Assembly: GCA_964613915.1 (NCBI GenBank)
Contig: CAZTIW010000014.1
Span: 30,928 to 94,927, forward strand
Direction of reading: 5' to 3'
DNA length: 64,000 bases
DNA from: an uncultured Thermoanaerobaculia bacterium
Lineage (GTDB): Bacteria > Acidobacteriota > JBCCFW01
Of the stretch, positions 29,042 through 57,100 are shown piece by piece. Made by a program: the position numbers and the translations under genes. Every line of letters begins with the position of its first letter. The stretch's first letter is position 1. The notes under the pieces were generated by a model. The model was not told the DNA's origin. It did no database searches and saw only the letters and a list, made by a program, of their open reading frames with translations.

Positions 29042-29473
29042 ATGCCGACGTTGCACGTGTCCGAGGAACTCGTGGCCGAGATGCGGGCGCTCGCGGAGCG
29101 GGCGTATCCGGCGGAGGCCTGCGGCCTGCTGCTGGGACAGAGCCTGCCGCGCGAGGGGAAGGGGCCGAAGATCGTCGCCAGCCGCCTGCACGGCGCGCGC
29201 AACGTGGCCAGGCCCGACGGCCAGCGCTTCCAGATTGACCCGGACGCGTTCCTGTCGGCGCACGAGGCCGCCGACGCCGCCGGCCTCGCGGTCCTCGGCG
29301 CGTGGCACTCGCATCCGGACAGGCCAGCCGAACCGTCGCCCGATGACATCGCGTCCGCCCAGCCCGGCTGGTGGACCGTGATCGTGGCGGTCGAGGACGG
29401 CCGCTCCGGCGGATGGGCCGCATTCCTTGCCGAGGGCGCCGAGCTCAAGGAGCAACGCACATGCATCTGCTGA
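29042..29473 (+). CDS. JAMM/MPN-family metallopeptidase (Mec+/CysO-peptidase-like)
   Basis: Complete JAMM motif E...HSHPDRPAEPSPDD (H-x-H-x7-S-x2-D); 143 aa. Confidence 0.8.
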   Translation: MPTLHVSEELVAEMRALAERAYPAEACGLLLGQSLPREGKGPKIVASRLHGARNVARPDGQRFQIDPDAFLSAHEAADAAGLAVLGAWHSHPDRPAEPSPDDIASAQPGWWTVIVAVEDGRSGGWAAFLAEGAELKEQRTCIC

Positions 29474-29504
29474 GGCGACACGCGATGGCATCCAGGACGG
29501 CGTC

Positions 29505-30686
29505 ATGGCCACGGTGAACGACCTGCTCGAGCGAGCGCGCTCCCGCGTCCCCGAGATCACCCCCGCGCAGGCGCACGCCGAGGCGCAGGCGGCGGCACCG
29601 GCCGGACGCCCGCCACTCGTTCTCGACGTTCGCGAGCCCGACGAGCGCGCGCAGGCCCGGATCGCTGGCTCCGCGCACGTGCCGCGCGGCCTGCTCGAGA
29701 TGCGGATGGACGCCCTCGAGCCCGACCGGTCGCGCCGCATCCTCGTCACTTGCGCCGGTGGCAACCGATCGCTGCTCGCCGCCGAGTCGCTGCTCGATCT
29801 CGGCTACGCCGATGTCGCGTCCATCGCGGGGGGCATGCGCGGCTGGAAGGAGGCCGGCCTTCCCGTGGACGCGTCGGCCGGCATGAGCGACGCCGATCAG
29901 CGTCGCTACGCGCGCCATCTCGTCATCCCCGAGGTGGGGGAGGAGGGCCAGGCCAAGCTCCTGGCCTCGAAGGTCGCGCTCATCGGCGCCGGCGGCCTCG
30001 GCTCGCCCGCGGCGTTCTACCTGGCCGCTGCCGGCGTCGGCACGCTCACGATCATCGATGACGACGTCGTGGACGAGACGAACCTGCAGCGGCAGATCCT
30101 GCACGACACGCGCCGCCTCGGCCGCCCGAAGGCCGACAGCGCGCGCGAGACGTTGCTCGCGCTCAACCCCGGCATCACGGTGAACGCGGTGCGCGAGCGG
30201 CTGGTCGCGGCGAGCGCGGAACGGCTCCTCGCTGGGCACGACGTCGTTCTCGACGGCTGCGACAACTTCTCGACGCGCTATCTCGTGAACGACGCGACGC
30301 TGAGGCTCGGCATCCCGAACGTCCACGGCAGCGTCTTCCGGTTCGAGGGGCAGGCGACGGTCTTCTGGTCGGCGCGCGGCGGCCCCTGCTACCGCTGCCT
30401 CTACCCGCAGCCCCCGCCTCCGGGCCTGTCCCCGTCATGCGCCGAGGCCGGCGTGCTCGGCGTGCTGCCGGGCGTCGTGGGGCTGCTCGAGGCCGTGGAG
30501 ACGATCAAGATCCTGCTCGATCGCGGGAGCCTCCTGATCGGCCGGCTTCTCGTCTATGACGCGCTCGAGGCCACCTTCACCGAGTTGCAGCTGCGACGCG
30601 ACCCCGCCTGCGCGTGGTGTTCGGGCCCGACGCCGCCCGAGCTGACTGATCTCGAGGTGACGTGCGCCGCGCCTCCCGCGTCGTGA
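29505..30686 (+). CDS. E1-like adenylyltransferase (ThiF/MoeB family) with N-terminal rhodanese domain
   Basis: Rhodanese active-site loop CAGGNRS; ThiF Gly-rich loop LIGAGGLGS; paired CxxC zinc motifs (CYRC, CAWC). Confidence 0.85.
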   Translation: MATVNDLLERARSRVPEITPAQAHAEAQAAAPAGRPPLVLDVREPDERAQARIAGSAHVPRGLLEMRMDALEPDRSRRILVTCAGGNRSLLAAESLLDLGYADVASIAGGMRGWKEAGLPVDASAGMSDADQRRYARHLVIPEVGEEGQAKLLASKVALIGAGGLGSPAAFYLAAAGVGTLTIIDDDVVDETNLQRQILHDTRRLGRPKADSARETLLALNPGITVNAVRERLVAASAERLLAGHDVVLDGCDNFSTRYLVNDATLRLGIPNVHGSVFRFEGQATVFWSARGGPCYRCLYPQPPPPGLSPSCAEAGVLGVLPGVVGLLEAVETIKILLDRGSLLIGRLLVYDALEATFTELQLRRDPACAWCSGPTPPELTDLEVTCAAPPAS

Positions 30687-30840
30687 GCCCGCTCAAGCGC
30701 GATCCCGGGCGCGCCGATGGATCTCCCGGACCTGTCCCGGGCGCGCTCGCGCGTTCTCCCTTGCGCTTGCGGCCGCCCGCCACGGATCATCACGGGGCCC
30801 GGCCGAATCGTCGGCGGCCCAACCCCGAGACCCTGCTGCG

Positions 30841-31209
30841 ATGAATCCCCAGACATCCTCCGCGAAAGCACTGCCGCTCGCGATCGTCGCGACGCTCTCC
30901 GCCGCGTGCATCGCGGTCGCCCTGTTCGCCACGCGCGTGGGCTTCTTCCGCGAGAGCGACCCGGACGGGACGTGGCACGTGAGGCTCTGGGACGCGTCGG
31001 CCGTGGCCGTGCCGCTGACGTTCCTGCTGTTCGCGCTGGGGGTTCAGTGGGCCATGCGCCAGCGCGCCGCGCTGGCCGTGCTGGCGATGCTTCCGCTGGT
31101 CGCGTGGATCGCCTGCGTGCGCTTCTTCGAGAACGTTCTCGCCAACGACGTCTGGGTCGCGCTCATCACGCTGCAGCTTCAGGGCCTGAACCCGTTCGGG
31201 GTCTCGTGA
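30841..31209 (+). CDS. Small membrane protein, hypothetical
   Basis: 122 aa, 3-4 predicted TM helices; stop overlaps the next start (ATGA). Confidence 0.45.
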   Translation: MNPQTSSAKALPLAIVATLSAACIAVALFATRVGFFRESDPDGTWHVRLWDASAVAVPLTFLLFALGVQWAMRQRAALAVLAMLPLVAWIACVRFFENVLANDVWVALITLQLQGLNPFGVS

Positions 31210-32435
31210 TGCGGGGCCGGTCCCTGCGGCGCCTCGCGGTGATCGCGGCGGCGGTCGCGTGCGTCGGCTGCAAGCCGCGCCCGGCGACCGATCCGCAGCC
31301 GACCGGCGCCACCGCGGCGTCCTCGGGCGCCGACGCGCCGGTGTCAGGATGGACGCAGGCCGGCGGCGGACCGGCGCGCACCGGCATGACGACCGAACCG
31401 GGACCGCGCGCGATGCCGGGCATCCGCTGGACGAATCCGCTCGAGCGCGACGTCGTGACCGAGCCCGTGCTCGGACGGGTCGGCGGAAAGCCCGTCGTGC
31501 TCATGGGTTCCGGCAACGAGGTCCTGGCCTTCGATCTGGAGACCGGCAAGACCGCGTGGTCGCATCGCACCGAGTCCATCATCAACGCATGCCCGGCACA
31601 GGTCGGGGACTCCGTGTGGACCGTGTTCATGGACGGCTTCGTGCTGCGCCTGTCCGCGGCCGACGGCCAGCTCGCGCAGGAACTGGAGTTCGACTTCACG
31701 CTCGAGGCGTCACCCCTGCTGCTACCCGGTCTCATGGTCTTCGAGGAGACGTCGTATTCGGCCAATGTCCAGGAGAACCGCCTGCACGCGATTGACCCGG
31801 CGACGGGGACCGGCAAGTGGGCGACGGACTTCGCGTCGGCCACGGGCCGCTCCGCTTCCAGCGACGGCCAGCGGATCTTCGTCGGCGCCAGCGACGCCAT
31901 CCTCGCCTTCGACGCCGCGACCGGAAAGCCCGCGTGGACGCACGCGTTCCCCGTCGTGACGCGGGTGTACACGCCCATGGTCAGCGGCGGACGCGTGCTG
32001 GTGGCCAGGGGCAGCTACGGCCCGGGGACGATCGAGGCCCTCGACGCGGCGACGGGCAAGCCCGCGTGGACCCGGCAGCTCGCCGGCCGCATCGCGACGC
32101 AGCCCGTGGCGACCGATACCGAGATCTTGCTGCCCATGATGGACGGCAAGATCGAGCGCGTGCTGATCGCCGACGGCACGACCGCGGGGCTGCTCGATCC
32201 GGGCGGCCGCTGCGATGCGCGACCGGTGCTCTCGCCCGAGCGCCTCTACGTTCCCGTCGAGCACGCGATCGTCGCCTTCGACCGCGCGACGTGGCAGCGC
32301 GCATGGACCGTGGAGCTCGAGAGCCAGGCGCCGCCCGGCACCGGCATCCTGCACCTGGCCGTGATGGGCACGCGTCTCGTCGCCGTGCGGCTCGACGGCT
32401 TCATGCACGTCCTCGAGGCGCCGGACGGCACGTGA
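31209..32435 (+). CDS. PQQ-like beta-propeller repeat lipoprotein (BamB-like fold)
   Basis: Lipoprotein-like signal MRGRSLRRLAVIAAAVACVGC; repeated ATGKxAW blades (TGKTAWS, TGKWAT, TGKPAWT twice). Confidence 0.65.
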   Translation: MRGRSLRRLAVIAAAVACVGCKPRPATDPQPTGATAASSGADAPVSGWTQAGGGPARTGMTTEPGPRAMPGIRWTNPLERDVVTEPVLGRVGGKPVVLMGSGNEVLAFDLETGKTAWSHRTESIINACPAQVGDSVWTVFMDGFVLRLSAADGQLAQELEFDFTLEASPLLLPGLMVFEETSYSANVQENRLHAIDPATGTGKWATDFASATGRSASSDGQRIFVGASDAILAFDAATGKPAWTHAFPVVTRVYTPMVSGGRVLVARGSYGPGTIEALDAATGKPAWTRQLAGRIATQPVATDTEILLPMMDGKIERVLIADGTTAGLLDPGGRCDARPVLSPERLYVPVEHAIVAFDRATWQRAWTVELESQAPPGTGILHLAVMGTRLVAVRLDGFMHVLEAPDGT

Positions 32436-34498
32436 GAGGCTCGCGGGCGATTCGTCGCGCGCCCCGCCGCGCGCCCGGCGTTCTCGCGGCGCTGCTCGCG
32501 GTGGCGGCGGTCGCCGGGCTCTGTTCCTGCGGCCCTCGCGCCGAGCCGCGCGCGCCGGACGTCATCCTCATCACGTTCGAGCGCCTGCGCTGGGAGGACC
32601 TGTCGCCGTGGGGCGGCGCCGTGCAGGCTCCCGGGTTCGGGCGCCTGGCCGAGCGCTCGGCGCGCTTCACCCGCGCCGTTACGTGCGCGCCCGGTGGCGC
32701 GCCCGCGGCGCTGACCGTGCTGACCGGCGCCATGCCCCTCGTGCATGGCGTCCGCGGCCGCGACGACGGCAGGCTCAGCGCGCAGGCCCGGAGCCTCGCG
32801 AGTCGCATGCGCGCGCGCAATTACGCGACCGGGGCCTTCCTTCAGAGCGACGACGTGACGGCCTTCATGCGCGCGGATCGCGACTTCCAGGCGTGGGACG
32901 GGCCCGTGGCCGGCTTTCCCACGGGTCACCCCGGCGCGAGCGCGCGACGGGGCGTGGACGAGACGGTCGCGGCGGGGCTCGCGTGGCTCATGGACCAGCC
33001 CGCCGATCGCGCCGGCTTTCTCTGGCTCAGCCTCGCGGAGCCCGCGACCCCCGAGCTGACGGCGGTCGAGCGTGCGTCGCGGCTGGGCGACGTCGATCGC
33101 GTCGTCGCCGCGGTGCTCGATCGCGCGCGCGCGCGTGGCGCGTCGCGCGGCGTGGCCCCCGTGCTCGTCGCGTGCAACCTGTCATCGCACGGGCCCGACC
33201 CGAGTCGCGCCGCGGACGAGGCCTTCCGCCTGGAAGCCGCCGCGCTGCGCGTGCGCGTGCTGGTCGAAGCCGAGGGCATGCCCGCCGGCGATGTCGCGGG
33301 CCTCGCGGGCCTCGATGAAGTCGCGGACCTCGTCGAGAGCCTGGTGGGCGGCCTGCCCTCGCGCTTGCGCGACTTGGCGTCGGGCAGCGGCCGCCCGCGC
33401 GAGGCGGTTCTCGCCGGGTCGATCCAGCCGGCGATCTGCTGTGGCGCCGAGCCGATTCGCGTGGCGATGGGGCCCGAGGGCGAGCCCGTGGCCGATCATC
33501 CGCTCGTCGCGCAATCCATCGCGTCCGACGCGGGCTGGCCCGGGGGCCATGGCGGGCCGACCGCCGCGGACGTCACGTCCGGCTACCTGGCGGCCGATGC
33601 CGCCTACAGCCTCGCGCGACAGGGGCGCGTCGAGGACGCGATCGCGGCGTTTCGCGCGATGGATGCGTCAGCGGCCGCGTTCCCCGTGTCGCGCGTGGGC
33701 CTCGGGCTCGCGCTCATGGCCGCGGGCGATCCGGCCGCCGCGGGCGAGACGTTCGCGGCGATGGCGGGGCAGACGCGTCCCGGCACGTTCGCGTGGGGGC
33801 AGGCGCGTCTGGGCCTCGCGCGCGCGGCGCGGCGCGCGGGCGAGCTCGCGAAGGCGGTCGCCGTGATCGACGAGATCGTGGCGGCGAGCCCGGACGACCT
33901 GCGTGCCCTGAGCTGGCGCGCCGAGATGTCCGAGGCCGCGGGCGACCGGCAGGGCGCCGTGGCGAGCGTCCTCGCCCTCGTCGAGCACGATCCCGAGAAC
34001 CCGCAGGCGCAAGCCGAACTCGGGAGGCTCCTGCTCATGATCGGGCGGCCGCGCGAGGCTGCCCGCGCCCTGGACGCCGCTTCCCGGCGGCGCCCCACGG
34101 ATCCCGTGCTGCTGCTGGCATCGGCGGACGCGTTCGCGGCATCGGGGGACTGGTGGTCCGCGCTCGACAAGATCGATCGCCGCATCCGGCTCTACGGGAG
34201 CGGGCCCGACACGGACTTCGCGACGGCGCGCTGCTGGCGCGACACGCATCGGTGGACGCTCGCCGCCGAGTACTTCGCTCGTTACGTCGAGGCGCGTCCC
34301 GACGAGGCGCGCGGGCGGCTCGGCCTCGCGGAGGCGCTGCTCTACGCGGGCGACGAGCGCGGCCTCGCGGAGTGGCGCCGCGCCCGCGATCTCGCGCCCG
34401 CGGATCCCACGCCGTGCGGCGTGCTGCGTCGCTGGGTCGCGCAGGGTGGCGGCCTCGCGCCGGCGGATCTCGCCGCGGAGTGTCCGGGCAGCGGATGA
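32432..34498 (+). CDS. Lipoprotein with alkaline-phosphatase-superfamily-like N-terminal domain and C-terminal TPR repeats
   Basis: GTG start overlapping upstream stop; signal with Cys (AGLCSCG); PDVILITFERLRWEDL resembles the AP-superfamily metal-site motif with substitutions; TPR-like helical repeats at C-terminus. Confidence 0.5.
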   Translation: MRGSRAIRRAPRRAPGVLAALLAVAAVAGLCSCGPRAEPRAPDVILITFERLRWEDLSPWGGAVQAPGFGRLAERSARFTRAVTCAPGGAPAALTVLTGAMPLVHGVRGRDDGRLSAQARSLASRMRARNYATGAFLQSDDVTAFMRADRDFQAWDGPVAGFPTGHPGASARRGVDETVAAGLAWLMDQPADRAGFLWLSLAEPATPELTAVERASRLGDVDRVVAAVLDRARARGASRGVAPVLVACNLSSHGPDPSRAADEAFRLEAAALRVRVLVEAEGMPAGDVAGLAGLDEVADLVESLVGGLPSRLRDLASGSGRPREAVLAGSIQPAICCGAEPIRVAMGPEGEPVADHPLVAQSIASDAGWPGGHGGPTAADVTSGYLAADAAYSLARQGRVEDAIAAFRAMDASAAAFPVSRVGLGLALMAAGDPAAAGETFAAMAGQTRPGTFAWGQARLGLARAARRAGELAKAVAVIDEIVAASPDDLRALSWRAEMSEAAGDRQGAVASVLALVEHDPENPQAQAELGRLLLMIGRPREAARALDAASRRRPTDPVLLLASADAFAASGDWWSALDKIDRRIRLYGSGPDTDFATARCWRDTHRWTLAAEYFARYVEARPDEARGRLGLAEALLYAGDERGLAEWRRARDLAPADPTPCGVLRRWVAQGGGLAPADLAAECPGSG

Positions 34499-35967
34499 TC
34501 CGGCTCGCGGCCCTCACGCTCGCCATGGCGCTCGGCATCGCGCTGATGCCCGCGGCGTGCCGGCGGCAGGTCGTGCAGTCCGCCGGCGGCGCGGAGACCG
34601 GCGCGGGCACGCGCGCGCCCGCAGACCTGCGCTTGCCCGTCATGGAGCTCGCGGCGCCGCTGGATCCCGACGCCAAGATCGACGGCCAGTTTCGACGCGA
34701 GCTCCTGCCGCAGGTGCGTCGCGACACGCCGCTGCGCCTGGTGGTGGACCTGACGGCGCAGCCCGATCTCGTCGCGCTCGGCCGTCGCCTCGACGCGCGC
34801 GATCGGACGCGGCGCGAGCGCGTGCTGGCCGCGGGCGCCGCGCTCGCGCAACGCGTGCCCGCGGCCACCGCGCTGGCCGACGAGCTGCGCGCGATGCCCG
34901 CCGTGACCGACGTGGTCGAGGCGACGTGCATGGCGCGCGTGAGCTTCACGGGGCCCGCGCGTCTCGCGACCGAGCTGGCGGCGCGTCCCGGCGTGCTGGC
35001 GGTGTGGGGGAGAGCCACGACAGGGCCGCCGCCGCCCGCAACCACGCGGCCCGGGGGAGCCGTGCCGCCCCTCGCGCGCCCGGCGGCCTCGTGGGCGATC
35101 GAGGCGATGCGCGTCGCGCCCGCGTGGGAGCGCGGGCTCCGGGGCGCGGGCGCGCACGCGTGCATCATGGACTCGCTGCCGGCGGCCGAGCATCCGGCGC
35201 TCGCGGGCCGCTTCGCTCGCACGGACGTCGCGCCGCCAGGAGCGGCGCTGCCGGACGACGGCGCGGGCCACGGTCTGGCCGTGCTCGGCGCGGCGGTGGC
35301 CGCGGATGGCCTGGGCGTGGCGCCCGAGGCCACGTGGTCGGGCGTGAACGCGATCGGCCAGTCAGGGCTCGATCCCGAGGCCATCGCGGCCGCGGTGGAT
35401 TGGATCCTGCTGCACGCGCGGCCCGACGTCGTGCTGGTGCCCTGGGACGTGCCGGACCAGATCCCCGCGCACGCGCTCGCGCTTCCGTTCGGCGCGCTGC
35501 GCACGGCGGGCATGGGCGTCGTGTTTCCCGCTGGCAACACGGGGCCCTCGCGCGGCGCGAACCGGCCGCCCGCGAACCTGCTGGCCCTCGCGCCGGATGG
35601 CGCCGCGGCGTTCTCCATCGGGGGCGTGGACCGCGCGATGGGGGCGTACGACCTGTCGAATCGCGGGCCCAACGCGCGCGACGGTTCGCAGTTCCCCCTG
35701 GCCGCTGCGCCCGGCGCGGATGTCGTCCTGCCCGATCCGGCCGGTGGCGTGCGGATCGCGCACGGCACGTCGCAGGCCTGCGGGTTCGCCGCGGGCGCCA
35801 TGGCGATCGTGCTCGCCGCGCATCCGCGCATGACGGGTCCGCAGGCCGAGGCGCTCTTGCAGGCGACCGCGCGCGATCTCGGCGAGCCCGGCCCCGACAC
35901 GACATTCGGTCACGGCATTCTCGATGTCGCCGCGGCGGTCGAGGCCGCGGCGACCCCGTCACGCTGA
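34495..35967 (+). CDS. Subtilisin-like (S8) serine peptidase lipoprotein
   Basis: ATGA overlap with upstream gene; signal MIRLAALTLAMALGIALMPAAC; S8-like His (GAGHGLAV) and Ser (HGTSQACGFAAGAMAI) regions. Confidence 0.65.
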   Translation: MIRLAALTLAMALGIALMPAACRRQVVQSAGGAETGAGTRAPADLRLPVMELAAPLDPDAKIDGQFRRELLPQVRRDTPLRLVVDLTAQPDLVALGRRLDARDRTRRERVLAAGAALAQRVPAATALADELRAMPAVTDVVEATCMARVSFTGPARLATELAARPGVLAVWGRATTGPPPPATTRPGGAVPPLARPAASWAIEAMRVAPAWERGLRGAGAHACIMDSLPAAEHPALAGRFARTDVAPPGAALPDDGAGHGLAVLGAAVAADGLGVAPEATWSGVNAIGQSGLDPEAIAAAVDWILLHARPDVVLVPWDVPDQIPAHALALPFGALRTAGMGVVFPAGNTGPSRGANRPPANLLALAPDGAAAFSIGGVDRAMGAYDLSNRGPNARDGSQFPLAAAPGADVVLPDPAGGVRIAHGTSQACGFAAGAMAIVLAAHPRMTGPQAEALLQATARDLGEPGPDTTFGHGILDVAAAVEAAATPSR

Positions 35968-35969
35968 CG

Positions 35970-36902
35970 TCACGGAAGCTCCGGGAGCGGTCGCGCGATC
36001 GCGCCCGCCAGCCGCATGGCCGCGTACACCGCCACGATCGCGAATAGCGTCGCGGCCATCACGCGCAGGCGCCAACGCGTCTTCGCGAGCGCTTCATGCT
36101 CGAGCAGCCCCGCCGCGCGCTCGAACGCGACATCGAGCCTGCCCGTGATCTCGGCGTCAGCCACGAGCGCCATCTCCACGGGCCGCAAGACCTGCGCGCG
36201 TCGCAGCGCGTCCGCGAGCCCCGCCCCGCGCTCGAGGTTGTCCGCGGCGCGGCGCAGGGCTCCGGTGAGCCCTTGGTGCGCGGCGGCATCGGCGGCATCG
36301 CGCAGCGTCGCGGGCATCGGGATCCCGGCGCCAGATAGCAGCGCGATCGTGCGGCACGCCCGCGCCGCCGCGTGAAGGCGCATCACCTCCGCGAGACCCG
36401 GCGGCGCGAAGCCGCTCGCGGCGGATCGGCGCAGGATCGCGACGACGATCGGGGGAACGAGGGCGATGGGCAGCGCCGCGCGAAGATACGGCCCGACGCC
36501 AGACGTCACGAGCACGGCGAGGGGCAGGATGAAGGCGATGACGAGCCATGCGACGATCGGCTCGATGGCGAGATGCCACATCTCCGCGAGAACGCGCGCT
36601 CGCGCCTCGCACGCTTCCGCGAGCCGGTCGAGCACGAGGTCGAGGCGTCCCGTGGTCTCGCCGGCCCGGACAACGGCGACGTGCGCGGGAGGGAGTCCCG
36701 CGCCGCGGAGCGCCTCCGACGGCAGGGCGCTGGTGGCGAACGCGCCGGCCAGCGCGGCCGCCGCGCGACGGGCCCCGGAGCCCGCGGCATCCGCTCGCAG
36801 GGCGGCGGCCATCTGGATGGGCGGGATGCCCGCCGAGTGCAAGCGCGCCGTCACGCGATAGAGCGCCGCGAGATCGCGCGAGGGGCCCGGCAACTCCAGC
36901 AT
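35970..36902 (-). CDS. GspF/PilC/TadC-like inner-membrane protein (two T2SS-F-type domains)
   Basis: Two copies of the family motif (GETTGRLDLVLDRL and AEITGRLDVAFERAAGL) flanking TM helices; Arg/Ser-rich 5-prime part of the long ORF excluded. Confidence 0.55.
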   Translation of the reverse strand: MLELPGPSRDLAALYRVTARLHSAGIPPIQMAAALRADAAGSGARRAAAALAGAFATSALPSEALRGAGLPPAHVAVVRAGETTGRLDLVLDRLAEACEARARVLAEMWHLAIEPIVAWLVIAFILPLAVLVTSGVGPYLRAALPIALVPPIVVAILRRSAASGFAPPGLAEVMRLHAAARACRTIALLSGAGIPMPATLRDAADAAAHQGLTGALRRAADNLERGAGLADALRRAQVLRPVEMALVADAEITGRLDVAFERAAGLLEHEALAKTRWRLRVMAATLFAIVAVYAAMRLAGAIARPLPELP

Positions 36903-36972
36903 CTCAAGCGCCCGCCACGCGGCGCTGCCGCGTGCACGAGAAGTGCCGTGATCCGAGACCGTTGCGGACCAT

Positions 36973-38748
36973 CTAGCTCGACGGCGGCGCGGGATCCGGC
37001 GCGTCGGGTGCGGCCTCGGTGGCGTCCGCGACGACGAGCGTCGGCGGAGCCGCCGAGGCGGGGTCGGCCAGCGCGGCGGCGGCCGGGCGCGGGCGCGTGA
37101 CGAAGGCCGCGATCGCGAGCAGGAGCGCCGCGAGGAGGCACGCGATCGCGAGAGCATCGCCGATGCGCGCGTACACGGTGGGCGCGCGGGCGTCGAGGAT
37201 GACCTGCGGGTAGAACACGCCCGCCTCGTTGATGGGCGAGCCCGTGTAGCGTCCGCGAAGGATCTCGCGCGGCCGTCCGTTGGGATCGATGAGCGCGGAG
37301 ATGCCGTCGTTCGTCGCGCGGACGACGCTCGTGCGCCCCTCGATCGCGCGGAAGCCCGAGACCGCGATCGTCATCTCGTGGATCGAGTCGCCCAGCCGTC
37401 CCTCGCTCGTCTGGTTGACGAGGAAGTCCACGCCGAGCCGGTGCCAGCGGTTCACGATGCGCGCCGTCGCGATCTCGAAGCAGATCGGCGCGCCGAACGT
37501 CCAGGTCTTGCCCTGGCGATCCGTGAACGTGAACGGCCGCATCTCGTCCACGGGGCCCGCCACGCCCTCGGGCACGACGCCGACGAATCGCTTGATGAAG
37601 CCCTCCCACGCCCGGCGCGTTCCGTCGCCGAACCGGCCTGCCAGCGCGCGTCCGGGGACGACCTCGGTCCACGGCAGCAGGCGCACCTTGTCGTAGAACT
37701 GCACGCTGCCGTCCGGCAGGACGAGCACGGACGTGTGGACGTCGCCGCCGAGATCGGGCGCGTGGCGCCATCCATCCGCGAGAATCGGTTGCTGGAGGCC
37801 CGCCGCGATGCGCGCGAGGTCGCCGATGAAGTGGGCGTCGGTGTCCCCGCCCCGCGTGCCGAACGGGATCGAGATGGAGTTCTCGGGCCAGAGGATCGCG
37901 TCGGAGTCCTGACGGGCCGTGGAGAGCGTCTGCAAGACCTGCAGGTCGAACAGGTTTCGCGCTTCCTTTTCCACGGGGGAACGAGCCGTGTTCGACTGCA
38001 GGACGTGCAGGCGTGGCCCAGCGCTGAAGTGGGCCTCCGTATCGCGGTGCGTGCCGTAGGCGAACACGCCGGCGAGGAGCAGCGCCACGCCAGCGCCCTG
38101 AAGCATGAGCGATCGCCGCGCGCGCGCGAGGCCCCCGGGCGTCGTCGCGGCGATGGCGGTCTCGGCCAGAAAGCCGTGCAGCGCCGCCAGCCAGAACGTG
38201 ACGGCGGCGACCCCGGCGAGGTCGGCCACCTGCACCATGCGCGTGAGCACGATTTGCGAGTATCCGAGCACGCACAGCGCGAGTTCGCCCGGCGACAGGC
38301 GCAGGCGCAGCCACTCGGTGCCCGTGAAGGTGATGGCCCACAGGAGCGCCAGCGGAAAGGCCGGCCAGCGGCTCCGCACCGAGCGGACCAGAAACCACGC
38401 GGGCAGCACGAGCGGCCAGTAGAACCAAGGCGCGAGCAGCCACGTCGCCGTGCCCTGGCCCCGCAGCCACTCGATGCCGATGAGCGCCATCAGCCACAGG
38501 CCAGCGCAGAAGGCGAGCAGGTTCCATCGCCCGGCGAGGCGCGGGTGGACGGCCACGATCAACCACGGAACGGTGGACCACCAGGCGTGCAGCGCCATCG
38601 CCGTGTCCCGCACGTGAACGCCGTACACGATGCCGCCACCGAGCGAAAGGATGACGACGAGCGCGAGCCGCACGGGATTCCGGAGGGGAGCCGGGCCGGC
38701 GGATTCGGGGGGTCTGGTCGGCTCGGGAGGGGAGGGCTCGGCGTCCAT
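36973..38748 (-). CDS. lnt: Apolipoprotein N-acyltransferase
   Basis: N-terminal polytopic membrane domain followed by carbon-nitrogen hydrolase domain; C-terminal TM helix. Confidence 0.8.
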   Translation of the reverse strand: MDAEPSPPEPTRPPESAGPAPLRNPVRLALVVILSLGGGIVYGVHVRDTAMALHAWWSTVPWLIVAVHPRLAGRWNLLAFCAGLWLMALIGIEWLRGQGTATWLLAPWFYWPLVLPAWFLVRSVRSRWPAFPLALLWAITFTGTEWLRLRLSPGELALCVLGYSQIVLTRMVQVADLAGVAAVTFWLAALHGFLAETAIAATTPGGLARARRSLMLQGAGVALLLAGVFAYGTHRDTEAHFSAGPRLHVLQSNTARSPVEKEARNLFDLQVLQTLSTARQDSDAILWPENSISIPFGTRGGDTDAHFIGDLARIAAGLQQPILADGWRHAPDLGGDVHTSVLVLPDGSVQFYDKVRLLPWTEVVPGRALAGRFGDGTRRAWEGFIKRFVGVVPEGVAGPVDEMRPFTFTDRQGKTWTFGAPICFEIATARIVNRWHRLGVDFLVNQTSEGRLGDSIHEMTIAVSGFRAIEGRTSVVRATNDGISALIDPNGRPREILRGRYTGSPINEAGVFYPQVILDARAPTVYARIGDALAIACLLAALLLAIAAFVTRPRPAAAALADPASAAPPTLVVADATEAAPDAPDPAPPSS

Positions 38749-38870
38749 GCGTCTCGTGATCGGCGGCCGTGCCGCGGGGCTTGAGCACGGCGCGCTTCAC
38801 GAATGAGGCGTCGCGTGGCTATGCTGCGTGCCGAGACGGTCCGCATTCACGGCCGTCCGGGAGTTCCAGC

Positions 38871-39278
38871 GTGGACGATAGCAGCCCTGGCGAGACCCCT
38901 GGCAAGCTTCCCATCGCGCCGGCCTACCTCGTGGTGCTGGCTGTCGGGGCGCTCGCGGGCGTCTGGCTCATGGCGAGCGCGGCCGGAGCCTGGCACGCCG
39001 CGAGCGCGGCCGAGTCGTTCCCGCCCGAAACGCGCCGCCGCCTCGCGTTCGCCGTCGTGTTCAACGCGGGCCTCGCGGGCGCGATCGCGCTGGCCGCGGC
39101 CGGCGAGGTCGTCGCGACCGCCGTGCGCCTCGTGCGCCGCCGTCCGCCGGTGCACGTGGCCGGCCGCCTCGGCTTCGCCCTGCTGCCCATGCTCGTGCTG
39201 GCGGCCGGGCATCACTTCGTCAACCCCTGGCTCGGCGACCTGCTCCGCGCCGTCCGGGGCGTGGCCGCCGGCGGGTAG
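38871..39278 (+). CDS. Small membrane protein, hypothetical
   Basis: Hydrophobic ORF divergent from lnt; start (GTG about 38871) uncertain. Confidence 0.35.
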   Translation: MDDSSPGETPGKLPIAPAYLVVLAVGALAGVWLMASAAGAWHAASAAESFPPETRRRLAFAVVFNAGLAGAIALAAAGEVVATAVRLVRRRPPVHVAGRLGFALLPMLVLAAGHHFVNPWLGDLLRAVRGVAAGG

Positions 39279-39660
39279 TTTCCGCCGCGGCGGCCGGGCA
39301 GGCCGCACGGGCCGCTTCGCGTCTCGCGGGCGCCCCGGCCCCTCCGCATGCCCTGCAAGTCTTGTGGATGGGCGGATTTGCGTGCCAGAATGCCGCACCG
39401 GTCGGGGTCGGCGTGTCCTGGGGCACCTGGGCCAGCTGAGCCACGGGGCCGCTCGCAGGCACGAAGGCGTCACGGGGGCGGGCCGAAGCGCGGCCCGGCA
39501 GGCCCGAGTTCGGGCTCCAGCCCGCGCCGTCTCCGCTGCGGGCGGACCGCCGCCATGACCGGGGCGCGGGGCCGGAAGGTCCGGCGCGTTCCCCTGCAGG
39601 TCGGCGCCGGCAGCTCGCGGGCCGTCGCCCCGCCCGCCCCATCCCTCACGGGAGCCCTCG

Positions 39661-42600
39661 ATGACCCTGCAACGCCATCTGTTCGGGATTCTCCTCGCCG
39701 TCTCGGTTGCCCTCGTGCCGTCATCGGCCCTCGCCGCTGACTCCGATGGCGACGGCGTGGACGACGCCTTCGACAACTGCGTCGCGACGCCGAACCCGGG
39801 CCAGGCCGACGCCGACGGCGACGGTCGCGGTGACGCCTGCGACAACTGCCCGCTCGCGGCGAACCCCCTGCAGGTGGACGCGGACTTCGACGGATTCGGC
39901 AACGTCTGCGATGTCTGCCCGACCGTGGCCGATCCGGGCCAGGCGGACGGGGACGGCGACGGCGTGGGCGACGCGTGCGACAACTGCCCGGCGGACTTCA
40001 ACCCCGGCCAGTCGGACATGGATGGCGACCTGCTCGGCGATCCGTGCGATCCCGATGCCGACGGCGACTTCCTTCCGGACGGCTTCGACAACTGCCCGCT
40101 GGTCCCGAATCCGCTGCAGGAGAACGCCGACTTCGACCCCTTCGGCGACGCCTGCGACAACTGCCCGACGATCCCCTCGGCCTCGCAAGCGGACAATGAC
40201 GGCGACGGCGTGGGCGACGTCTGCGACAACTGCCCGGCAACCCTCAACGCCTCGCAGGCAGACGCCGACGGCGACAACGTGGGCGATGCCTGCGACAACT
40301 GCCCGTCCGCGAACAACGCCCTGCAGTCCGACAGCGACGGCGACGGCATCGGCGACGCGTGCGACATCTGCCCGGCCGTGTTCGACCCCGCGCAGCCCAA
40401 CTCCGACGGCGATGCCTTCGGCGACGGCTGCGACAACTGCCCCACCGTGACGAACGCGCTGCAGTCCGACCAGGACGCGGACGGCGTGGGCGACGCGTGC
40501 GACGACTGCCCGTTCGCGGCCGATCCCGGCCAGACGGACGCGGACGGCGACCTGGTGGGTGACGCCTGCGACAACTGCCCCTCGATCGTCAACAACACGC
40601 AGGCTGACCAGGACGGGGACGGCGTGGGCGATCCGTGCGACAACTGTCCGTCCACCGCCAACGCGGGCCAGGCCGACGCGGACGGCGACGGGCGCGGCGA
40701 TGCGTGCGACAACTGTCCCGGCAACGCCAACCCGGGCCAGGCTGACGATGACGGGGACGGCCTCGGCAACCCTTGCGACAACTGCCGCTTCATGCCGAAC
40801 CCGCTCCAGGAGAACGCCGACGGCGACTCGCGCGGCGACGCGTGCGACAACTGCGTCAACGTCCCGAACGGCGGTCAGGCCAACACCGATGGCGACGCCT
40901 TCGGCAACGCGTGCGACAACTGCCCGACGGTGGCCTCGCTCGATCAGGCGGATGGCGACGGCGACGGCATCGGCGATGTCTGCGACAACTGCCCGACCGT
41001 GAGCAACGCCTCGCAGGCCGACGCCGACACGGATGGCGTCGGCGACGCCTGCGACCAGTGTCCGGCCATCCCCGACACGGATCGCGACGGCGCGTGCGAC
41101 TTCCGGGACAACTGCCCGCTCACGTTCAACCCGGATCAGGCGGATTCGGACATTGACGGCGAGGGCGACGCGTGCGACGGCTGTCCGTGCGATCCCGCGA
41201 ACGTGAACTCGGACGGCGACGCCATCTGTGACTGCGTGGACAACTGCCCGGGCACGACCAACCCCGATCAGCTCGACACGGATCTCGACCGTCGCGGCAA
41301 CGCCTGCGACAACTGCCCGCTCGTCGCGAACCCGTCGCAGCTGGACACGGACGGCGACGGCCGTGGAGACGCCTGCGACAACTGCCCGACGCGCGTGAAC
41401 CTGTCGCAGCTCGACGCCGACGGCGATGGCTTCGGCAACTCGTGCGACAACTGCGTGTTCATCCCGAACCCCACGCAGCTCGACTCGGACGGCGACGGCT
41501 GGGGCGACGTCTGCGACAACTGCCCCGTGGCGAACCCCACGCAGGCGGACGCCGACGGCGACGGCATCGGCGATGCCTGCGACAACTGCCGGAGCGCGGC
41601 CAACGCGACGCAGATCGATGGCGACGGCGACGGCGTGGGTGACGCCTGCGACAACTGCCCGGCGGTCGCCAACGCGACGCAGGCCAACACCGATGGCGAC
41701 GGCGCCGGCAACGCCTGCGACAACTGCCCGACGGTCGCGTCCGCCACGCAGCTGGACTCGGATGGCGACCTGGTGGGCGACGCCTGCGACAACTGCCCGG
41801 GCATCGCGAACGCGACGCAGGCCAATCGCGACGGCGACGCGCTCGGCGACGCCTGCGACAACTGTCCGACGGTGGCGGGCGCCAGCACGGCCGACAGCGA
41901 CGGCGACGGTGTCGGCGACGCGTGCGACAACTGCCCGTCCTTCCCGAACACGCTCCAGAACGACGTGGACCGCGACGGGACGGGCGACTCGTGCGACAAC
42001 TGTCCCAGCGTCGCGAACCCCCTGCAGCAGGATGGCGACGGCGACGGCGTCGGCGACATCTGCGACACCTGTCCCGCGACCGGCGACAACGATCGGGATC
42101 TGGATGGCCGTTGCGGCGACGTGGACAACTGCCCGTTCGTCGGCAACCCCGGCCAGGAGGACGCCGACGGCGACGGCCTCGGCGATGTCTGCGACGCTTG
42201 CCCGCGTGACGCCGCGAACGACGCGGACGGCGACGGCATCTGCGCGAACTCGGACAACTGCCCGACGGTCTTCAACCCGAACCAGGCCGACGCCGACAGC
42301 GACCGGATCGGCGACGCCTGCGATCCGTTCCCGGGCGACACGCTGAACGACGCCGATGGCGACGGCATCCCGGGCACGATCGACAACTGTCCGAACGTCA
42401 GCAACGCGCTGCAGCTCGACGGCGACGGGGACGGGCGCGGGGATGCCTGCGACAACTGTCTCGCGTTCCAGAACGCCGGCCAGGAAGACCTGAACGTCAA
42501 TGGCCGGGGCGATGCCTGCGAGGTCCGCTACGGCGACGTCGCTCCCGCGGGCATGCCTGACGGGGTGCTCAACGTCGGCGATGTCGTGCGCGCGCTCCGC

Positions 42601-42792
42601 TTCGCGGTCGGCCTCGAGGTGCCGACGCGGTCCGAGCGCGACCGGTGCAACGTCGCGCCGGCGCTGCTGGCGGGCGCCAACCCCCAGATCGCCACCCCGA
42701 CGCAGGCGGCCCCGCGGCAGATCGATGTCTCCGATGTCGTGCTGATGCTGCGGGGCTCGGTCGGCCTGCTCGTCTTCACCGATCCGGTCTGA
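39661..42792 (+). CDS. Secreted thrombospondin-type-3 (TSP3) calcium-binding repeat protein, 1043 aa, with dockerin-like C-terminal segment
   Basis: Signal peptide [25 protein letters not shown]; about 40 tandem copies of D[14 protein letters not shown]; C-terminal paired segments [19 protein letters not shown] and [16 protein letters not shown]. Confidence 0.85.
39730..42480 (+). repeat. Intragenic tandem array of about 75-bp TSP3 repeat units
   Basis: Recurrent GACGGCGACGGCGTGGGCGACGCCTGCGACAACTGCCCG-like units throughout the CDS. Confidence 0.8.
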
Positions 42793-45243: not shown

Positions 45244-46443
45244 TCAGGGCGACGGGGCGGCCGCGCGGAGCGGCCGCGTGGCGACGGTCTCGGCGACCTC
45301 GAGCCGGAGCAGGTCGGGATCGCTCGCGTCGAAGCGCAGCCAGGCGAGGCCCTCCGGCACCGGCGTGAAGTAGCGCTCGGGGAACGTCCACGCGCCACCC
45401 TCGCGCACGGCGAGCAGCCCCCACGTCGAGTCGAGACCGGAGGGGCGGGACTCGTCCACCACGACGAGGGCCTCGGTGACGCCGCCCCGGTCGCGCGCGT
45501 CCGTGACCCGGATCCACGTGCCGGCTTCCGGCGGCGCCGGGCGCCCCAGCGAGGTGACGGCGCCCGTGCGCGGATCGGCGGCGATCAGGTCGGTCATCGC
45601 CGCCGTGCCGATCGTGCGCGGGGCGATGAGGAGCCGATCGGCCCCGCCGAAGATCTGCCGCGTGGAGAGAGTCCAGCGGAGATCCGGGCGATCGCCGGCG
45701 AGTTCGACGCGCGCCCACGCCTTGCCATCGGCGGTCGCGACCAGGGCATCCTCGAGCAATCCGCTCTCGAGGGGCGTCACGCGCACTTCGGGCTTGCGCG
45801 GCGCCTCGAGAGGCTCGGGCACGCGGTTGAAGCGGCTGCCGCGGCCGACCCGGGCATGGTCCATCGTGGCCCGGGGCATGATCGCGAGCATGCCCGCCTC
45901 GCTGCCGATCCCGCGCGCCTTCTCGCGGGCGGCGAGGTTCCTCCAGAGGTTCTCGTCGAACGGCTCGACATCCACGTGCATGGCCGCGGCGGTGCCGCGC
46001 GCATCGCCCCACGCGCGAACGCGCCACTCGGCGCCGGGCTCGGCGGCCTCCACGCGGCGCAGGAGCGACGCATCGGCTGCGAGAGGAATGTGGACCTCGC
46101 CCGTGGCCGTCTTCAGTCGCGGCAGGGGGAGGTCCTGGGGCCGGTAGAGCGACATCCAGACCGCCGTGCGCGCGTCGAGGTGCGGCTGCAGCACGCGTCC
46201 GGCCGGGATGGGCGAGCGCTCGTCCGTGTCAGCCCAGCCGAGAGCGCGTCGTTCCTCTCGGGAGTCGCGCGGGGCCGGGTCCGGCGTGGCCGTGCCGCCG
46301 GGAGGAACGAAGACCGGGGTCGCGGGGCGGGCCGGCGCTTCGGCGGCTCGCGCCGGAAGCGGAGCCGTCGCGGCGGCGATCAGCAGGGCGCAGGGAAGAA
46401 GACGAAGCAGCATGAGCCAAAGCCTAGCGCGGCACGGCCGCAA
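45244..46443 (-). CDS. Secreted hypothetical protein
   Basis: Signal peptide LLRLLPCALLIAAATAPLPARA; start is either the non-ATG codon at 46443 or the ATG at 46413. Confidence 0.5.
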   Translation of the reverse strand: MRPCRARLWLMLLRLLPCALLIAAATAPLPARAAEAPARPATPVFVPPGGTATPDPAPRDSREERRALGWADTDERSPIPAGRVLQPHLDARTAVWMSLYRPQDLPLPRLKTATGEVHIPLAADASLLRRVEAAEPGAEWRVRAWGDARGTAAAMHVDVEPFDENLWRNLAAREKARGIGSEAGMLAIMPRATMDHARVGRGSRFNRVPEPLEAPRKPEVRVTPLESGLLEDALVATADGKAWARVELAGDRPDLRWTLSTRQIFGGADRLLIAPRTIGTAAMTDLIAADPRTGAVTSLGRPAPPEAGTWIRVTDARDRGGVTEALVVVDESRPSGLDSTWGLLAVREGGAWTFPERYFTPVPEGLAWLRFDASDPDLLRLEVAETVATRPLRAAAPSP

Positions 46444-52805: not shown

Positions 52806-54008
52806 CTACCACACCGCGTAAAACCGCAGGTCCGTTCCGCTCCCCACATCGGGATCACCCAGCGTCGTCGCCGCCGCCGCACCGTCGAGCACGCTCCACG
52901 GGCCGTTCGCGACGTCCGAGCGCTCGACGAGCCACGGCGCGCGCGCCCCTGTCCACGAGAGCACGACATCGCTTCCCGAGCGTCGCGCGCGCAGGTCCAC
53001 CGGCGTGAGAAACCACGGCCGTGCCGTCGGATCCGTCCGGTAGAATGCCGACAGGAGCGAGGACACCCTCATGCGGCCCGCGGGAGAGGGATGCGTGCCG
53101 TCGGGCCCGAGATCCGCGCACTCCCACACGAGCCCATCCGATCGCGGTGTCATGCCATCCGCCCACAGGTAGGGCCCCCACAGGAGCCATGGCGACTCGA
53201 CCGGTCCGAGCGCGGCATCGGGATTGAGCGCGGGATCGCCGTCGAGCTGATCCTCGATCAGCCAGCGAAACGAGAAGCCCTCCTCGAACGCGTACGGCTC
53301 GGGATTGAGCGTGGTCGTGGCGTAGCCCGCGTAGATGCGGCTGCTCACGTGCGCGAGCCGCAGGTTCGGGAAGTGATCGCGCAGAAGCGCGACGATCTCG
53401 CGCAGCCGGTCGAGCATCTCGAGCGCATGAGCGGGAAACGCGCCGAAGCTGGCAGGCTGCCGCCGCGCGAGCTTGATCCACGCAACCTGCACTTGCCGAG
53501 GCGTCAGCCCCGCCACCGCGAGCCGTCGATCGCACTCGGCCCACACGTCCGAGGCGGGATCCGCCCAGTTGCCCGCCTCGCGCCCGCCTTGCGCGAGATC
53601 CACGATGCGCAGCCGCGGATGAAGCTCGGGATCGCCAGCCTGCTGCGTGATGAACGTGGAAAACTCCTGCGTCGTGTTCGACATCCCGATGGACGCGAGA
53701 ACGATGACGCCCGAAGGCGACGGCTGTCCGCTCGCGTCGAGCGGCACGATGCCGCGACGCGCAAGGAGCAGAGTGGCCTCGACGTGCGATGCCGGCGCGA
53801 AGTTCACGCCGCCGGGGTACAACCCCCCGGGCTCGCCGAGATGCCCCGCGCCGGGATCGCTGAGGGGGATGAAGCCGACGGAGGTCTGCGCGCAGTCCTG
53901 GGCGCGGGCGGGGGTTGCTAGGCCGAGCGAGGCGACGGTGATGGCGAGCGTGGCGGGGGTCAGCCGCGCGAGGATGCCGGGACGAACGGCTGGGCGGGAC
54001 GAGAGCAT
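52806..54008 (-). CDS. Secreted hypothetical protein
   Basis: Start set at MLSSRPAVRPGILARLTPATLAITVASLGLATPARA (signal peptide); protein-like composition. Confidence 0.5.
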   Translation of the reverse strand: MLSSRPAVRPGILARLTPATLAITVASLGLATPARAQDCAQTSVGFIPLSDPGAGHLGEPGGLYPGGVNFAPASHVEATLLLARRGIVPLDASGQPSPSGVIVLASIGMSNTTQEFSTFITQQAGDPELHPRLRIVDLAQGGREAGNWADPASDVWAECDRRLAVAGLTPRQVQVAWIKLARRQPASFGAFPAHALEMLDRLREIVALLRDHFPNLRLAHVSSRIYAGYATTTLNPEPYAFEEGFSFRWLIEDQLDGDPALNPDAALGPVESPWLLWGPYLWADGMTPRSDGLVWECADLGPDGTHPSPAGRMRVSSLLSAFYRTDPTARPWFLTPVDLRARRSGSDVVLSWTGARAPWLVERSDVANGPWSVLDGAAAATTLGDPDVGSGTDLRFYAVW

Positions 54009-54059
54009 GACGGCGGACTCCACGCGGAACGTAGCGCCGGGGGGCGGCGGGAGGCAAGG

Positions 54060-54125
54060 GCAGGGCGCTTGACGGGCATGCAAGGGAGGCGTAGCGTCGG
54101 TTCTTGCTTGTTACACGACGTAACT
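54060..54125 (+). promoter_or_regulatory. Candidate promoter/operator upstream of the rhs gene
   Basis: TTGACG-N17-TAGCGT sigma70-like spacing, then a locally AT-richer stretch with GTTAC-N5-GTAAC inverted repeat and duplicated TTGCT. Confidence 0.25.
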
Positions 54126-54182
54126 TGCTATGCGGTCGCGCGCCAGGCTGTGGGAGGCACGCGAGGGACTGGAGGTGAGGTG

Positions 54183-57100
54183 ATGCCCGTGGCGATGCGT
54201 TGGCGCGGCATGCTCGTTCTGCCGATCGTTGGCATGGTTCTTGCCCCCCCCTCCGCGCTCGCAGGATGGCCCGAGGGACACGTGCAGGTTCAGGTGGAGA
54301 AACCCTGTCCCGTGGGTCCCAGTCGCTCAGGTGTTGGCCTCGGTGACGGGTCGCTGACGCTCGACTTTCCGTTCGTCCTCGTCCCGCAGGCGCCTGGACC
54401 GGTTGTCTTCTCCTTGCAGTACGCCAGCGGAGCGGACAACCCCGGGACGTACGGCACGCGGCTGAACCTGCGCGTCCGGACGGAGAAGCGAACGGACGCG
54501 TGCCCGGGGTTCTCGCCGGCGTCGGACTTCGTTCCGCGAGCGGTGGATGCCGCGGAGGTCAACTTCAACACATCGCCGGGCGATCAGCGCGCCGTGGGCT
54601 TCGGCGTCCGAAAGTCAAACAACGGCGGCTCCTCGGAGGCCTGCAACGTCTCTCGATCGAGTGAGATGCCATTCCCTTCCAGCAACTTGGTTCGAGGGGG
54701 AGGACTGCCGTCGGACTGGTGCCCGGGCGGCCCCGTCGGTGGCCACGGCTGCGTGTCCGACATGGAAGCCGTGGTCACGCTGCCGCTGCGACTCTCGGAT
54801 CCCGGCGATCCAGGAGCGCAGATGGCCTATCAGCGGAAGGCGCCTGGCCAGCCTGACTGTCCACCGCCGGTGCCGAATGAGTTTCCGGCGGATCGCGGGG
54901 TCTACAGCATCAATGCGGGGGCGACGCTTCGATTCGACTCGCCCGCGTACTCAAGGAACGACTACAGCCACGACGACAGGCAGTCCGACGACCCGTGCGA
55001 GCAGTTCCTCTACCTCGAGAAGCGGCCTGACGAGACCATCGCGCGCCTCGGCGTGAACTGGACTCACTCGTTCGCATGGAGCCTGACGGAATATAGCGTT
55101 GGCACGAGGCAGTTCGTTGCAGTGAGGTCGCCGCGCGGGAGCGTGAGCCTGTACGAGCGGCCGGCGGGACTGGCTCTCAACCAGGAACTCCCGCTTCGTC
55201 CCTCGGCAGGCTGTTCGTGCCAATCGGCGCGGCTCTTCTGGACTAGGCGCTCGTTCGCTCCTCCCGGGATCGGCGTGAGCTTCTTCGCCTACGAGCTCGT
55301 GGCCGAAGACGCTTCACGCATGGTCTTCACGGAGTTCAGCGTCTTCGAGGGGGGACAGCTTCGCGCCCCGGCAGGTCGCCTCGTTCGTCTCGAGGACAAC
55401 GATGGCCAGAGTCCCATCGCCCTCACGTACGACACGAACGGCGACCTGGCCCGCGTCTACGATGCAGCGGGCTTCCACGTGGAGCTGCAGTACGCGGAGA
55501 CCCCAAGCGGGCGACGGCTCGAGCGGCTCGTCCTGCCGGGCGGGCGGCAGGTCTCGCTGGGCTGGCTGGCGGGCAAGCTCGCTTCGCTGCGCGACCCCGT
55601 TCATGTCGCTCAGAACCTTCCCGGCTACACGTTCGCCTACGGCACGGGCTTGAGTTCCGAGGACATCACGTGCCGCACGTCGCCTGACGGCGAGATTCAT
55701 CGGTACACGTACATCACCGATCCTGCGGATCCCAACGCCGGCCGGCTCAAGACGGCCGAGATCGTGGACAGCTGCGAGGCTACCGAATCGAAGAACACGC
55801 TGACCTACACGTACTCGCGCCCCGACTCCGTGGACGGCGAGCGCTGGGTGAAGATCACGCCTCACTTGGTGACCACGGCACCCATCATCAAGAACGTTCT
55901 GAACGCCGACGGCCATCTCATCCGCACGGAAGAGATCTGTGCCGAGACGAGCGCCGAGGCTGTTGCGCGATCCTGTCCGGTGGTGCCCGAGATCAGTCCG
56001 CACCCGGTCGTTGCGATGGTGAGCTCCACCAGCTACGACGAGTTCGGACAAGCGCGCGCCGTGCGCACGTACCCCGTGGTGCTCCCTCCCTACGACCCGT
56101 CGGATCCGCCGAGCCCAACGAGCCTCGATGCCACGCACTTCTCGGTATCGTGCGTGACGCGCGATGCGTCGCAAGGCAAGCCCATCACGTTGTTCGGGTC
56201 AACATGCATTGATACCTCGACCGTGCCGCCGACGGCGGTGGATGGCTGGACGGATGAAGCCTGCGACTGCGATCTGGCGCAGCTCAATGCCGCCCCCGTT
56301 CCGACGGTCGCGCCCATCGGCACGCAGGTGAGCTGGGAGTTCGATGTCCAGGGTGCGGGTCCGACGCCGATCCTCGTCACGTACGATCGGCCCCGCCGCG
56401 TGATAGCGCCGAGCCAGCGGACAGACCCCGGGCAGGGCGCGCCTGGAGCCAGCGCCAAGGGCGTGCGGATCTTCTACTACGAGACGGTGGGGTATCCCAT
56501 CCGTTCCCACATCTCGGACATCTGCCCGCCCGAAGTGGACTCACCCGAGCCCGGGTTGGGCTGCGAGCACTTCGAGTACAACTTCTACACGATCCACGGC
56601 GGCGACGTGGTTCAGCTTGCGAGCCGGACGGACGGCTCGGGGAACACGTGGACCTACGAGTACGATCCGCTGACGCATCTCCTGTCGCGGATCACCGCTC
56701 CGTCGTCGGACGGACAGCAGTTCGTGACGAACTTCCAGTACGGCACCGACGGACTCTTGAACTACGTCGAGGCGCCGGGCGGTCTCGTGACCGCGTTCCT
56801 GCGCAACGAGCGCGGACAGATCGCGATCGAGTCCCGCCCGGGCGCGGCGCCGCCGGAGCGCATGCAAGTCCGCTACACGTACACGCCCGGGGGCAAGCTG
56901 CGGCGCATCGCGGATGAGAGCCGGGAGTCGCAATCCTCCCCGGGGAAGTACGTCGCGTGGTGGATCAGTTATGGCGGACCGGCGGTGTTCAGCGACTGGG
57001 GTGCCGAGCCCGCACAGTTCGAACGACTCCCCCGTGCGCTGCGGCGCGGCCCGGCCACTCTGGGCGGGCCGTTCGCCACGATTGACGCGGACGAGCTTCA

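Follow-up and report, generated by a model that had tools for sequence, protein, structure and literature searches.

Cohesin-dockerin pairs are a standard toolkit of ordered extracellular assembly, much used in synthetic biology, and the thrombospondins and COMP are structural or adhesive proteins built on thrombospondin type 3 (TSP3) repeats. Bacterial proteins with TSP3 repeats and dockerins outside cellulosomes have both been recorded before, as have cases in which the two occur together. Among the closest described systems, MtsC from Myxococcus xanthus (NCBIfam NF047638, MXAN_1334) is a MYXO-CTERM protein acting in cell-cell cohesion and S motility (PMC11980579; PMC12475490), and the "Dockerin-type giant proteins" of Omnitrophota combine dockerin/EF-hand elements with bacterial TSP3 repeats and are predicted to mediate extracellular attachment (bioRxiv 10.1101/2023.11.21.568195). 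Here, we analyzed a gene from a 64,000-nucleotide stretch of contig CAZTIW010000014.1 (64 kb, hereafter the window; Table 1). Its product is a secreted, extremely acidic TSP3-repeat protein with a divergent C-terminal dockerin. Taken as a whole, we regard it as fairly probable that this protein is a non-enzymatic extracellular "calcium cable", tethered through its dockerin to a cohesin.

We compared the protein to each of these systems. The 23-residue unit (DNCPxxxNxxQxDxDxDGxGDxC), with its paired cysteines, resembles the "calcium wire" of thrombospondin and COMP. However, 39 units are strung together in one bacterial protein, relative to approximately 7–13, and the chain finishes in a dockerin rather than in EGF or lectin-like C-terminal domains. 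MtsC is similarly secreted and dominated by TSP3 repeats, and the protein scores 742.8 bits against the MtsC model (cutoff of 350), through 20 repeat stretches on the 428-position model. Its 1043 residues differ from MtsC in lacking the MYXO-CTERM signature (Cys motif, hydrophobic helix and basic cluster), and since the score arises from the repeats alone, identity as an MtsC equivalog was rejected. A second NCBIfam candidate, Omp28_seleno, was rejected because that score also comes from the repeats alone. The Omnitrophota giants exceed 30,000 residues and are multi-domain and membrane-anchored, whereas this protein contains only TSP3 repeats and a single terminal dockerin.

The dockerin end departs from the cellulosomal type I dockerins (C. 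thermocellum Xyn10B, 1OHZ/2CCL; the Clo1313_0689 double dockerin, 8X39; Doc435, 4DH2), which comprise approximately 60–70 residues. The module runs to 90 residues, with four extra residues ("APxG") in loop 1 and an inserted hairpin of approximately 17 residues in loop 2; it lacks the loop 2 Asp-Gly and is missed by Pfam Dockerin_1. Its setting also differs, a high-GC diderm host with no cellulase context and a non-enzymatic cargo. Non-cellulosomal cohesin/dockerin-like modules, such as those of the S. degradans dockerin-like open reading frames (PMC2386152), resemble it in belonging to organisms that show no sign of a cellulosome and in accompanying calcium-binding repeats on secreted proteins. 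Relative to these, the module family described here has distinct loops and, in relatives, operon linkage to cohesins and peptidases.

Assignment of the tail as a dockerin comes from family-level comparisons and from structure prediction. A profile of 57 family members, compared with all PDB sequences, ranked dockerins in the top four places: 4dh2_B (E = 0.0073), 2ccl_B, 1ohz_B and 5m2o_B. The alignments set the family sequence GD...DGxVxVxDVVxxLR onto the dockerin calcium loop and the helix that follows. Individually, 10 of the 57 relatives matched Pfam Dockerin_1 (best E = 1.8e-5) and 12 weakly matched NCBIfam dockerin_GC (best E = 7.9e-4). In the family alignment, hhalign finds the first half of the module homologous to the second (probability 97.5%, E = 6.4e-12), revealing the tandem loop-helix duplication that is expected of a dockerin. 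An AlphaFold2 (AF2) model of the module has a predicted local distance difference test (pLDDT) score of 96 and a predicted template modelling (pTM) score of 0.87, and adopts the three-helix dockerin fold. Its top Foldseek match was 2ccl_B (probability 0.99, template modelling score of 0.79, normalised to the target). Remote homology, taken with a confidently predicted model, indicates that the module is a real, divergent dockerin. A preliminary description, made from the window's letters alone, had picked out two short paired segments (residues 967–985 and 1021–1036) and termed the tail dockerin-like; the segments are present and significantly related to each other at the family level, and the tail belongs to a conserved family. 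A literature search on "GC-type dockerin" and on the accession numbers retrieved nothing.

The module, which we term GDVAP-type, is widespread. We searched 1.84 billion cluster representatives exhaustively with the tail using phmmer; 335 of them matched at E<=1e-3, of which 62 reached E<=1e-10. Architecture statistics were taken from the best 150 of these matches, 145 of which hold a near-complete module. The module ends 6 or fewer residues from the C-terminus in 93 of the 145 (64%), is N-terminal or internal in 52, and occurs in several copies in 26. Signal-peptide-like N-termini were found on 83 of 103 complete module-bearing proteins. The cargo includes TSP_3 linkers (28/62), GSDH, FG-GAP, CarboxypepD_reg and Laminin_G domains, and S8, M4, M23 and trypsin peptidases. 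Such variation in cargo, position and copy number is what a portable module would show; thus, the tail is a mobile domain that is not specific to the TSP3 protein.

Other searches returned few relatives. A word-indexed homologue search gave one match from the tail alone and five from the family alignment, all to short proteins, and searching GTDB species genomes with the single tail found no related locus. Looking up the window protein by exact identity likewise returned nothing. The back-translated pattern WGDVAPxGxPDG gave only two chance matches in genome contigs; in metagenome contigs it returned the P0003 locus, a half-module and one chance match. Two short fragments (P0001 and P0002), carrying TSP3 repeats and a tail at 61% identity, are probably the ends of orthologues of the TSP3 protein. 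As a separate observation, a half-module variant at locus L003 (560–760) belongs to a protein that stops after the first loop-helix (...WGDVAPRGLPDGSVDVADVVLALRVAVGLNVFSAPR and then the stop codon), forming a single-repeat "half dockerin".

Comparison of the two loops with canonical calcium loops reveals where the module has diverged. Loop 1 presents D959, D967-G968, N971 and D974 at positions 1, 5-6, 9 and 12, with the APxG insertion, including a conserved Pro, following position 2 where position 3 should be. Loop 2 keeps N997, D1022 and D1025, while its insertion is modelled as a β-hairpin packing on the C-terminal strand "LVF", and positions 5-6 are Pro-Arg in the window's subfamily. The C-terminus reads ...LLVFTDPV. 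Three columns are invariant among the 57 members (D959, D974 and D1025), and G958, P962, G968, L979-R980, P1000 and L1030-R1031 are conserved in at least 90%. Position 967 is Asp in 51 of the 57, and positions 971, 997 and 1022 are Asp or Asn in 48–56. From these ligand patterns, calcium binding by loop 1 is plausible and by loop 2 doubtful. The linker of the module holds Cys996 (42646–42648), the odd 81st cysteine of the protein, which is Gly or Ala in most relatives and would be either free or paired intermolecularly.

The remainder of the mature protein is the TSP3 array. Pfam TSP_3 (PF02412) matched at E = 2e-124, with 405 bits against a gathering cutoff of 25, spread over 26 stretches. 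Regular expressions counted 39 DxC[PVRL] units, with a period of exactly 23 residues in nearly every case, and 41–42 acidic DxDxD loops; the strict motif D.D.D..G[DN].CD.C is matched by 26 copies. The array contains 80 of the 81 cysteines, at a spacing compatible with 40 intra-unit C(i)-C(i+20) pairs. Together, the profile score, the DxDxDGxxDxxDxC motif and the paired cysteines identify these units as TSP3 repeats. The mature protein is approximately 102 kDa with an isoelectric point (pI) of approximately 4 and contains 213 Asp (20% of residues), 8 Glu and no Lys. No catalytic domain was found in it, and the signal peptide is the sole hydrophobic 19-residue window in the whole protein. The 39 units and the 69-nucleotide period bear out the earlier estimate of about 40 tandem repeats, and the signal peptide with the very strong TSP_3 match fits the secreted Ca2+-binding array that had been suggested. 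The reading frame is as first described, but "giant" was a generous word for a protein of this size.

Cohesins accompany the module in several relatives. Two proteins, P0064 and P0139, have Pfam Cohesin domains that exceed the gathering score, with two or three dockerin-like modules after them, and a local cohesin hidden Markov model (HMM) matched 11 of 151 family proteins. Two others, P0058 and P0052, share a conserved operon arrangement in L012 (NCBI GCA_039029535.1, JBCCFW010000022.1, 6871–12996) and L014 (forest-soil contig ENA ERZ1758406, 2–7028). At the start of the L012 operon is an M43 peptidase that finishes in a canonical dockerin; the L014 contig opens partway through a gene, the product of which also has a canonical dockerin at its C-terminus. 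Both then encode a scaffoldin that contains three cohesin-like domains and itself terminates in a dockerin-like segment, followed by a small protein comprising cohesin, TSP3 and a GDVAP module. The last gene encodes an M43 peptidase in L012, in which no dockerin was seen, and an M6 peptidase ending in a dockerin in L014, where a large protein bearing two GDVAP modules is also encoded. This operon looks like a cohesin-scaffolded protease assembly. At L015 (1329–6730), a 1346-residue Laminin_G_3 protein ending in the module is encoded directly upstream of P0064, whose cohesin is followed by two dockerin-like modules. The model of P0058 has confident domains and no confident cohesin-dockerin arrangement (pTM of 0.45), and bears on binding in neither direction.

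We propose the following mechanism for the calcium cable. A Sec signal peptide, recognised from the sequence, would carry the protein into the periplasm of the diderm host. A disulfide would then close each of the approximately 40 TSP3 units, and Ca2+ would fill their DxDxDGxGD loops, as suggested by homology to thrombospondin and COMP and by the cysteine spacing, to give a long polyanionic wire. The C-terminal 90 residues are predicted to fold as a dockerin, and this would hold the cable by non-covalent contact to a cohesin, borne by a scaffold or cell-surface protein from another part of the genome. The case for docking derives from the role of the fold in cellulosomes and from the relatives with fused or adjacent cohesins. 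We infer both this docking to a cohesin encoded elsewhere and passage of the protein across the outer membrane. Its role is likely structural or adhesive, in a Ca2+-dependent matrix or in cell-cell cohesion, by analogy with MtsC but with a dockerin as the tether in place of a MYXO-CTERM anchor.

Several results weigh against this mechanism. The tail alone had no match at E<=10 in Pfam, including Dockerin_1 (PF00404), or in NCBIfam, including the GC-type dockerin (NF041540), and no match in the PDB by phmmer; the HMM search that the preliminary description had suggested as a check was therefore negative. The module does not present two 12-residue EF-hand-like loops with Asp or Asn at positions 1, 3, 5, 9 and 12, as loop 1 is without a position-3 ligand and loop 2 without the canonical Asp-Gly, and these non-canonical loops make the Ca2+ dependence of the module uncertain. 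The fold is assigned from a predicted model rather than a solved structure, and the comparison to MtsC is one of analogy. Pfam scans of the open reading frames judged likely genes found no cohesin in the window, nor did two local cohesin HMMs applied unfiltered to its six-frame translation (best E = 0.08 and 0.32). Thus, the cohesin-dockerin anchoring that had been suggested gains indirect support from the cohesins fused or adjacent to the module in relatives but finds no partner in the window. Many non-cellulosomal dockerin-like modules are also without a known partner, as Peer et al. reportedly noted in 2009. Five sizeable predicted proteins in the window have no Pfam family (16011–18074 on the plus strand; 18112–20346, 23117–24985, 45247–46443 and 52809–54083 on the minus strand). 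Several of these start with a signal-peptide-like sequence, and the cohesin HMMs matched none of the five.

These points could also be read as a tail with a dockerin or EF-hand-like fold that has no cohesin partner and serves as a Ca2+-dependent folding nucleus or cap for the array, or binds a polysaccharide or another matrix protein. The window without a cohesin and the degenerate loops would both be expected, as would the matches of 5 of the 57 relatives to the generic EF-hand_6 model and the absence of an adjacent cohesin at most of the module-bearing loci examined (for example, L004). Yet a cap for TSP3 repeats accounts poorly for unrelated cargo and for N-terminal, internal and repeated placement, which are better suited to a portable plug, and cohesins lie in the same polypeptide or operon at several independent loci. 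We therefore consider a partnerless tail unlikely. The predominantly C-terminal position of the module, on signal-peptide-bearing proteins with diverse cargo, might instead suggest a secretion or sorting domain, possibly removed, with a role like that of the type IX secretion system (T9SS) C-terminal domain, MYXO-CTERM or PEP-CTERM, and MtsC, the best full-length NCBIfam match, is indeed sorted through its own C-terminus. The module has neither a hydrophobic helix nor a Cys/Arg sorting motif at its C-terminus, its fold is helical and not the T9SS β-sandwich, and the 52 N-terminal or internal and 26 multi-copy members are difficult to accommodate, making a sorting function improbable.

The composition of the array raises the question of whether the protein mainly serves in bulk sequestration of Ca2+ or other metals, or in control of mineralisation, with the tail merely localising it. 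Some 40 acidic loops, the abundance of Asp, the low pI and the absence of a catalytic domain would suit such a task. However, no specific evidence points to it, the characterised TSP3-repeat proteins (thrombospondins, COMP and MtsC) are structural or adhesive, and sequestration is compatible with a tethered cable rather than exclusive of it; as the main function we give it little credence. Finally, the length of the array might reflect mis-joined or mis-counted repeats, given that on each of the six related contigs (L006–L011) the contig stops before the large gene in synteny is complete, indicating that short-read assemblies break inside it. Here, the 69-nucleotide copies share merely 62–74% DNA identity (Tandem Repeats Finder and repeat search), which makes a gross copy-number artefact by exact repeats unlikely, and a repeat search seeded with 20 nucleotides gave one diverged family only, in which the identity of all copies to the reference was 62–73%. 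The frame is unbroken from signal peptide through to terminal domain, and a 101,984-bp NCBI contig is listed as encoding an identical product of the neighbouring lnt. An assembly artefact is thus very improbable, and the dockerin-tethered cable is the explanation that we favour.

The inserted-loop dockerin variant, missed by the curated libraries, is new, as is an all-TSP3, non-enzymatic dockerin cargo. A third new element, at the family level, is a set of apparently cohesin-scaffolded peptidase operons in uncultured high-GC bacteria. On a broader and more doubtful view, which we raise only tentatively, the GDVAP-type modules might be an unrecognised dockerin class, with an uncultured high-GC diderm lineage building cohesin-scaffolded assemblies in which peptidases and Ca2+-loaded TSP3 cables are mounted on multi-cohesin scaffoldins. 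If true, the lineage would possess a cellulosome counterpart that organises proteases and matrix, with the window protein as its purely structural, thrombospondin-like cable. It would widen the known range of cohesin-dockerin systems to diderm, high-GC, uncultured hosts with peptidases and non-enzymatic calcium-repeat cables as cargo in place of cellulases. A divergent dockerin class with inserted loops, a small β-sheet and possibly altered calcium dependence would extend the cohesin-dockerin toolkit, and the gene offers a testable hypothesis for the anchoring of a large thrombospondin-like protein on the outside of a bacterial cell.

The features of the locus are collected in Table 1. The GC content of the window is approximately 72% overall, with many spurious overlapping open reading frames, from among which a codon-position GC of 0.71/0.50/0.92 distinguishes the TSP3 gene as a real frame.

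Table 1 Coordinates of the TSP3 gene, its parts and its upstream neighbours within the window.
Feature	Coordinates	Strand	Residues	Basis
Complete open reading frame, ATG start, 1043 residues and stop	39661..42792	+	1–1043	Third-position GC of 0.92 marks the coding frame
Shine-Dalgarno-like GGGAG, 6 nucleotides 5' of the ATG	39650..39654	+		Sequence read
Sec-type signal peptide, cleavage ALA|AD, no lipobox	39661..39735	+	1–25	Sequence
39 TSP3 units, period 23 residues (69 nucleotides)	39736..42519	+	26–953	Pfam TSP_3, motif counts, Tandem Repeats Finder
GDVAP-type module, 90 residues, dockerin fold	42520..42789	+	954–1043	
First loop-helix	42532..42615	+	958–985	Column statistics, HMMER alignment to 4dh2_B, model helix at tail residues 19–29
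Second loop-helix, starting NVAP	42649..42768	+	997–1036	Column statistics, hhalign, model
lnt, apolipoprotein N-acyltransferase, divergent from the TSP3 gene	36973..38748	-		Pfam LNT_N and CN_hydrolase, homologues
Small conserved membrane protein, upstream of the TSP3 gene	38769..39278	+		Alignment with 24 invariant columns; syntenic in six loci

We used lnt, the presence of which indicates a diderm host, as an anchor for synteny. On contigs with Lnt orthologues (50–71% identity), the order of lnt, the small membrane protein and a large secreted TSP3 gene is kept. The N-terminal content of the large gene varies among L006–L011, with FG-GAP repeats, a large unannotated region or cysteine-rich Asp/Cys motifs. 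The small membrane protein (approximately 120–170 residues) has no significant Pfam match, with TctB sub-threshold at 19.9 bits against a cutoff of 29.1. Copies were located in L007 (826–1269), L008 (3442–3798), L009 (4482–4931), L010 (2658–3104) and L011 (484–897), always between lnt and the large gene and oriented like the latter, to which it may be functionally linked.

The wider neighbours in the window are housekeeping genes, with endonuclease III and PolX downstream and a ThiF-PQQ-TPR-S8 block upstream. The order ThiF-rhodanese, PQQ_2 β-propeller, sulfatase-TPR, S8 peptidase, (T2SS-F-like) and lnt (29427–37157) is conserved across the metagenome contigs L008–L011. A type II secretion cluster beside the TSP3 gene was considered and rejected, as there is only a single T2SS-F-like gene. 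Further along the window, two RHS-repeat proteins (1737 and 652 residues) and an NHL-repeat protein are encoded on the plus strand at 54069–63757, where the GC content is 63–67% compared with 70–77% elsewhere, and this stretch may be a horizontally acquired toxin cassette.

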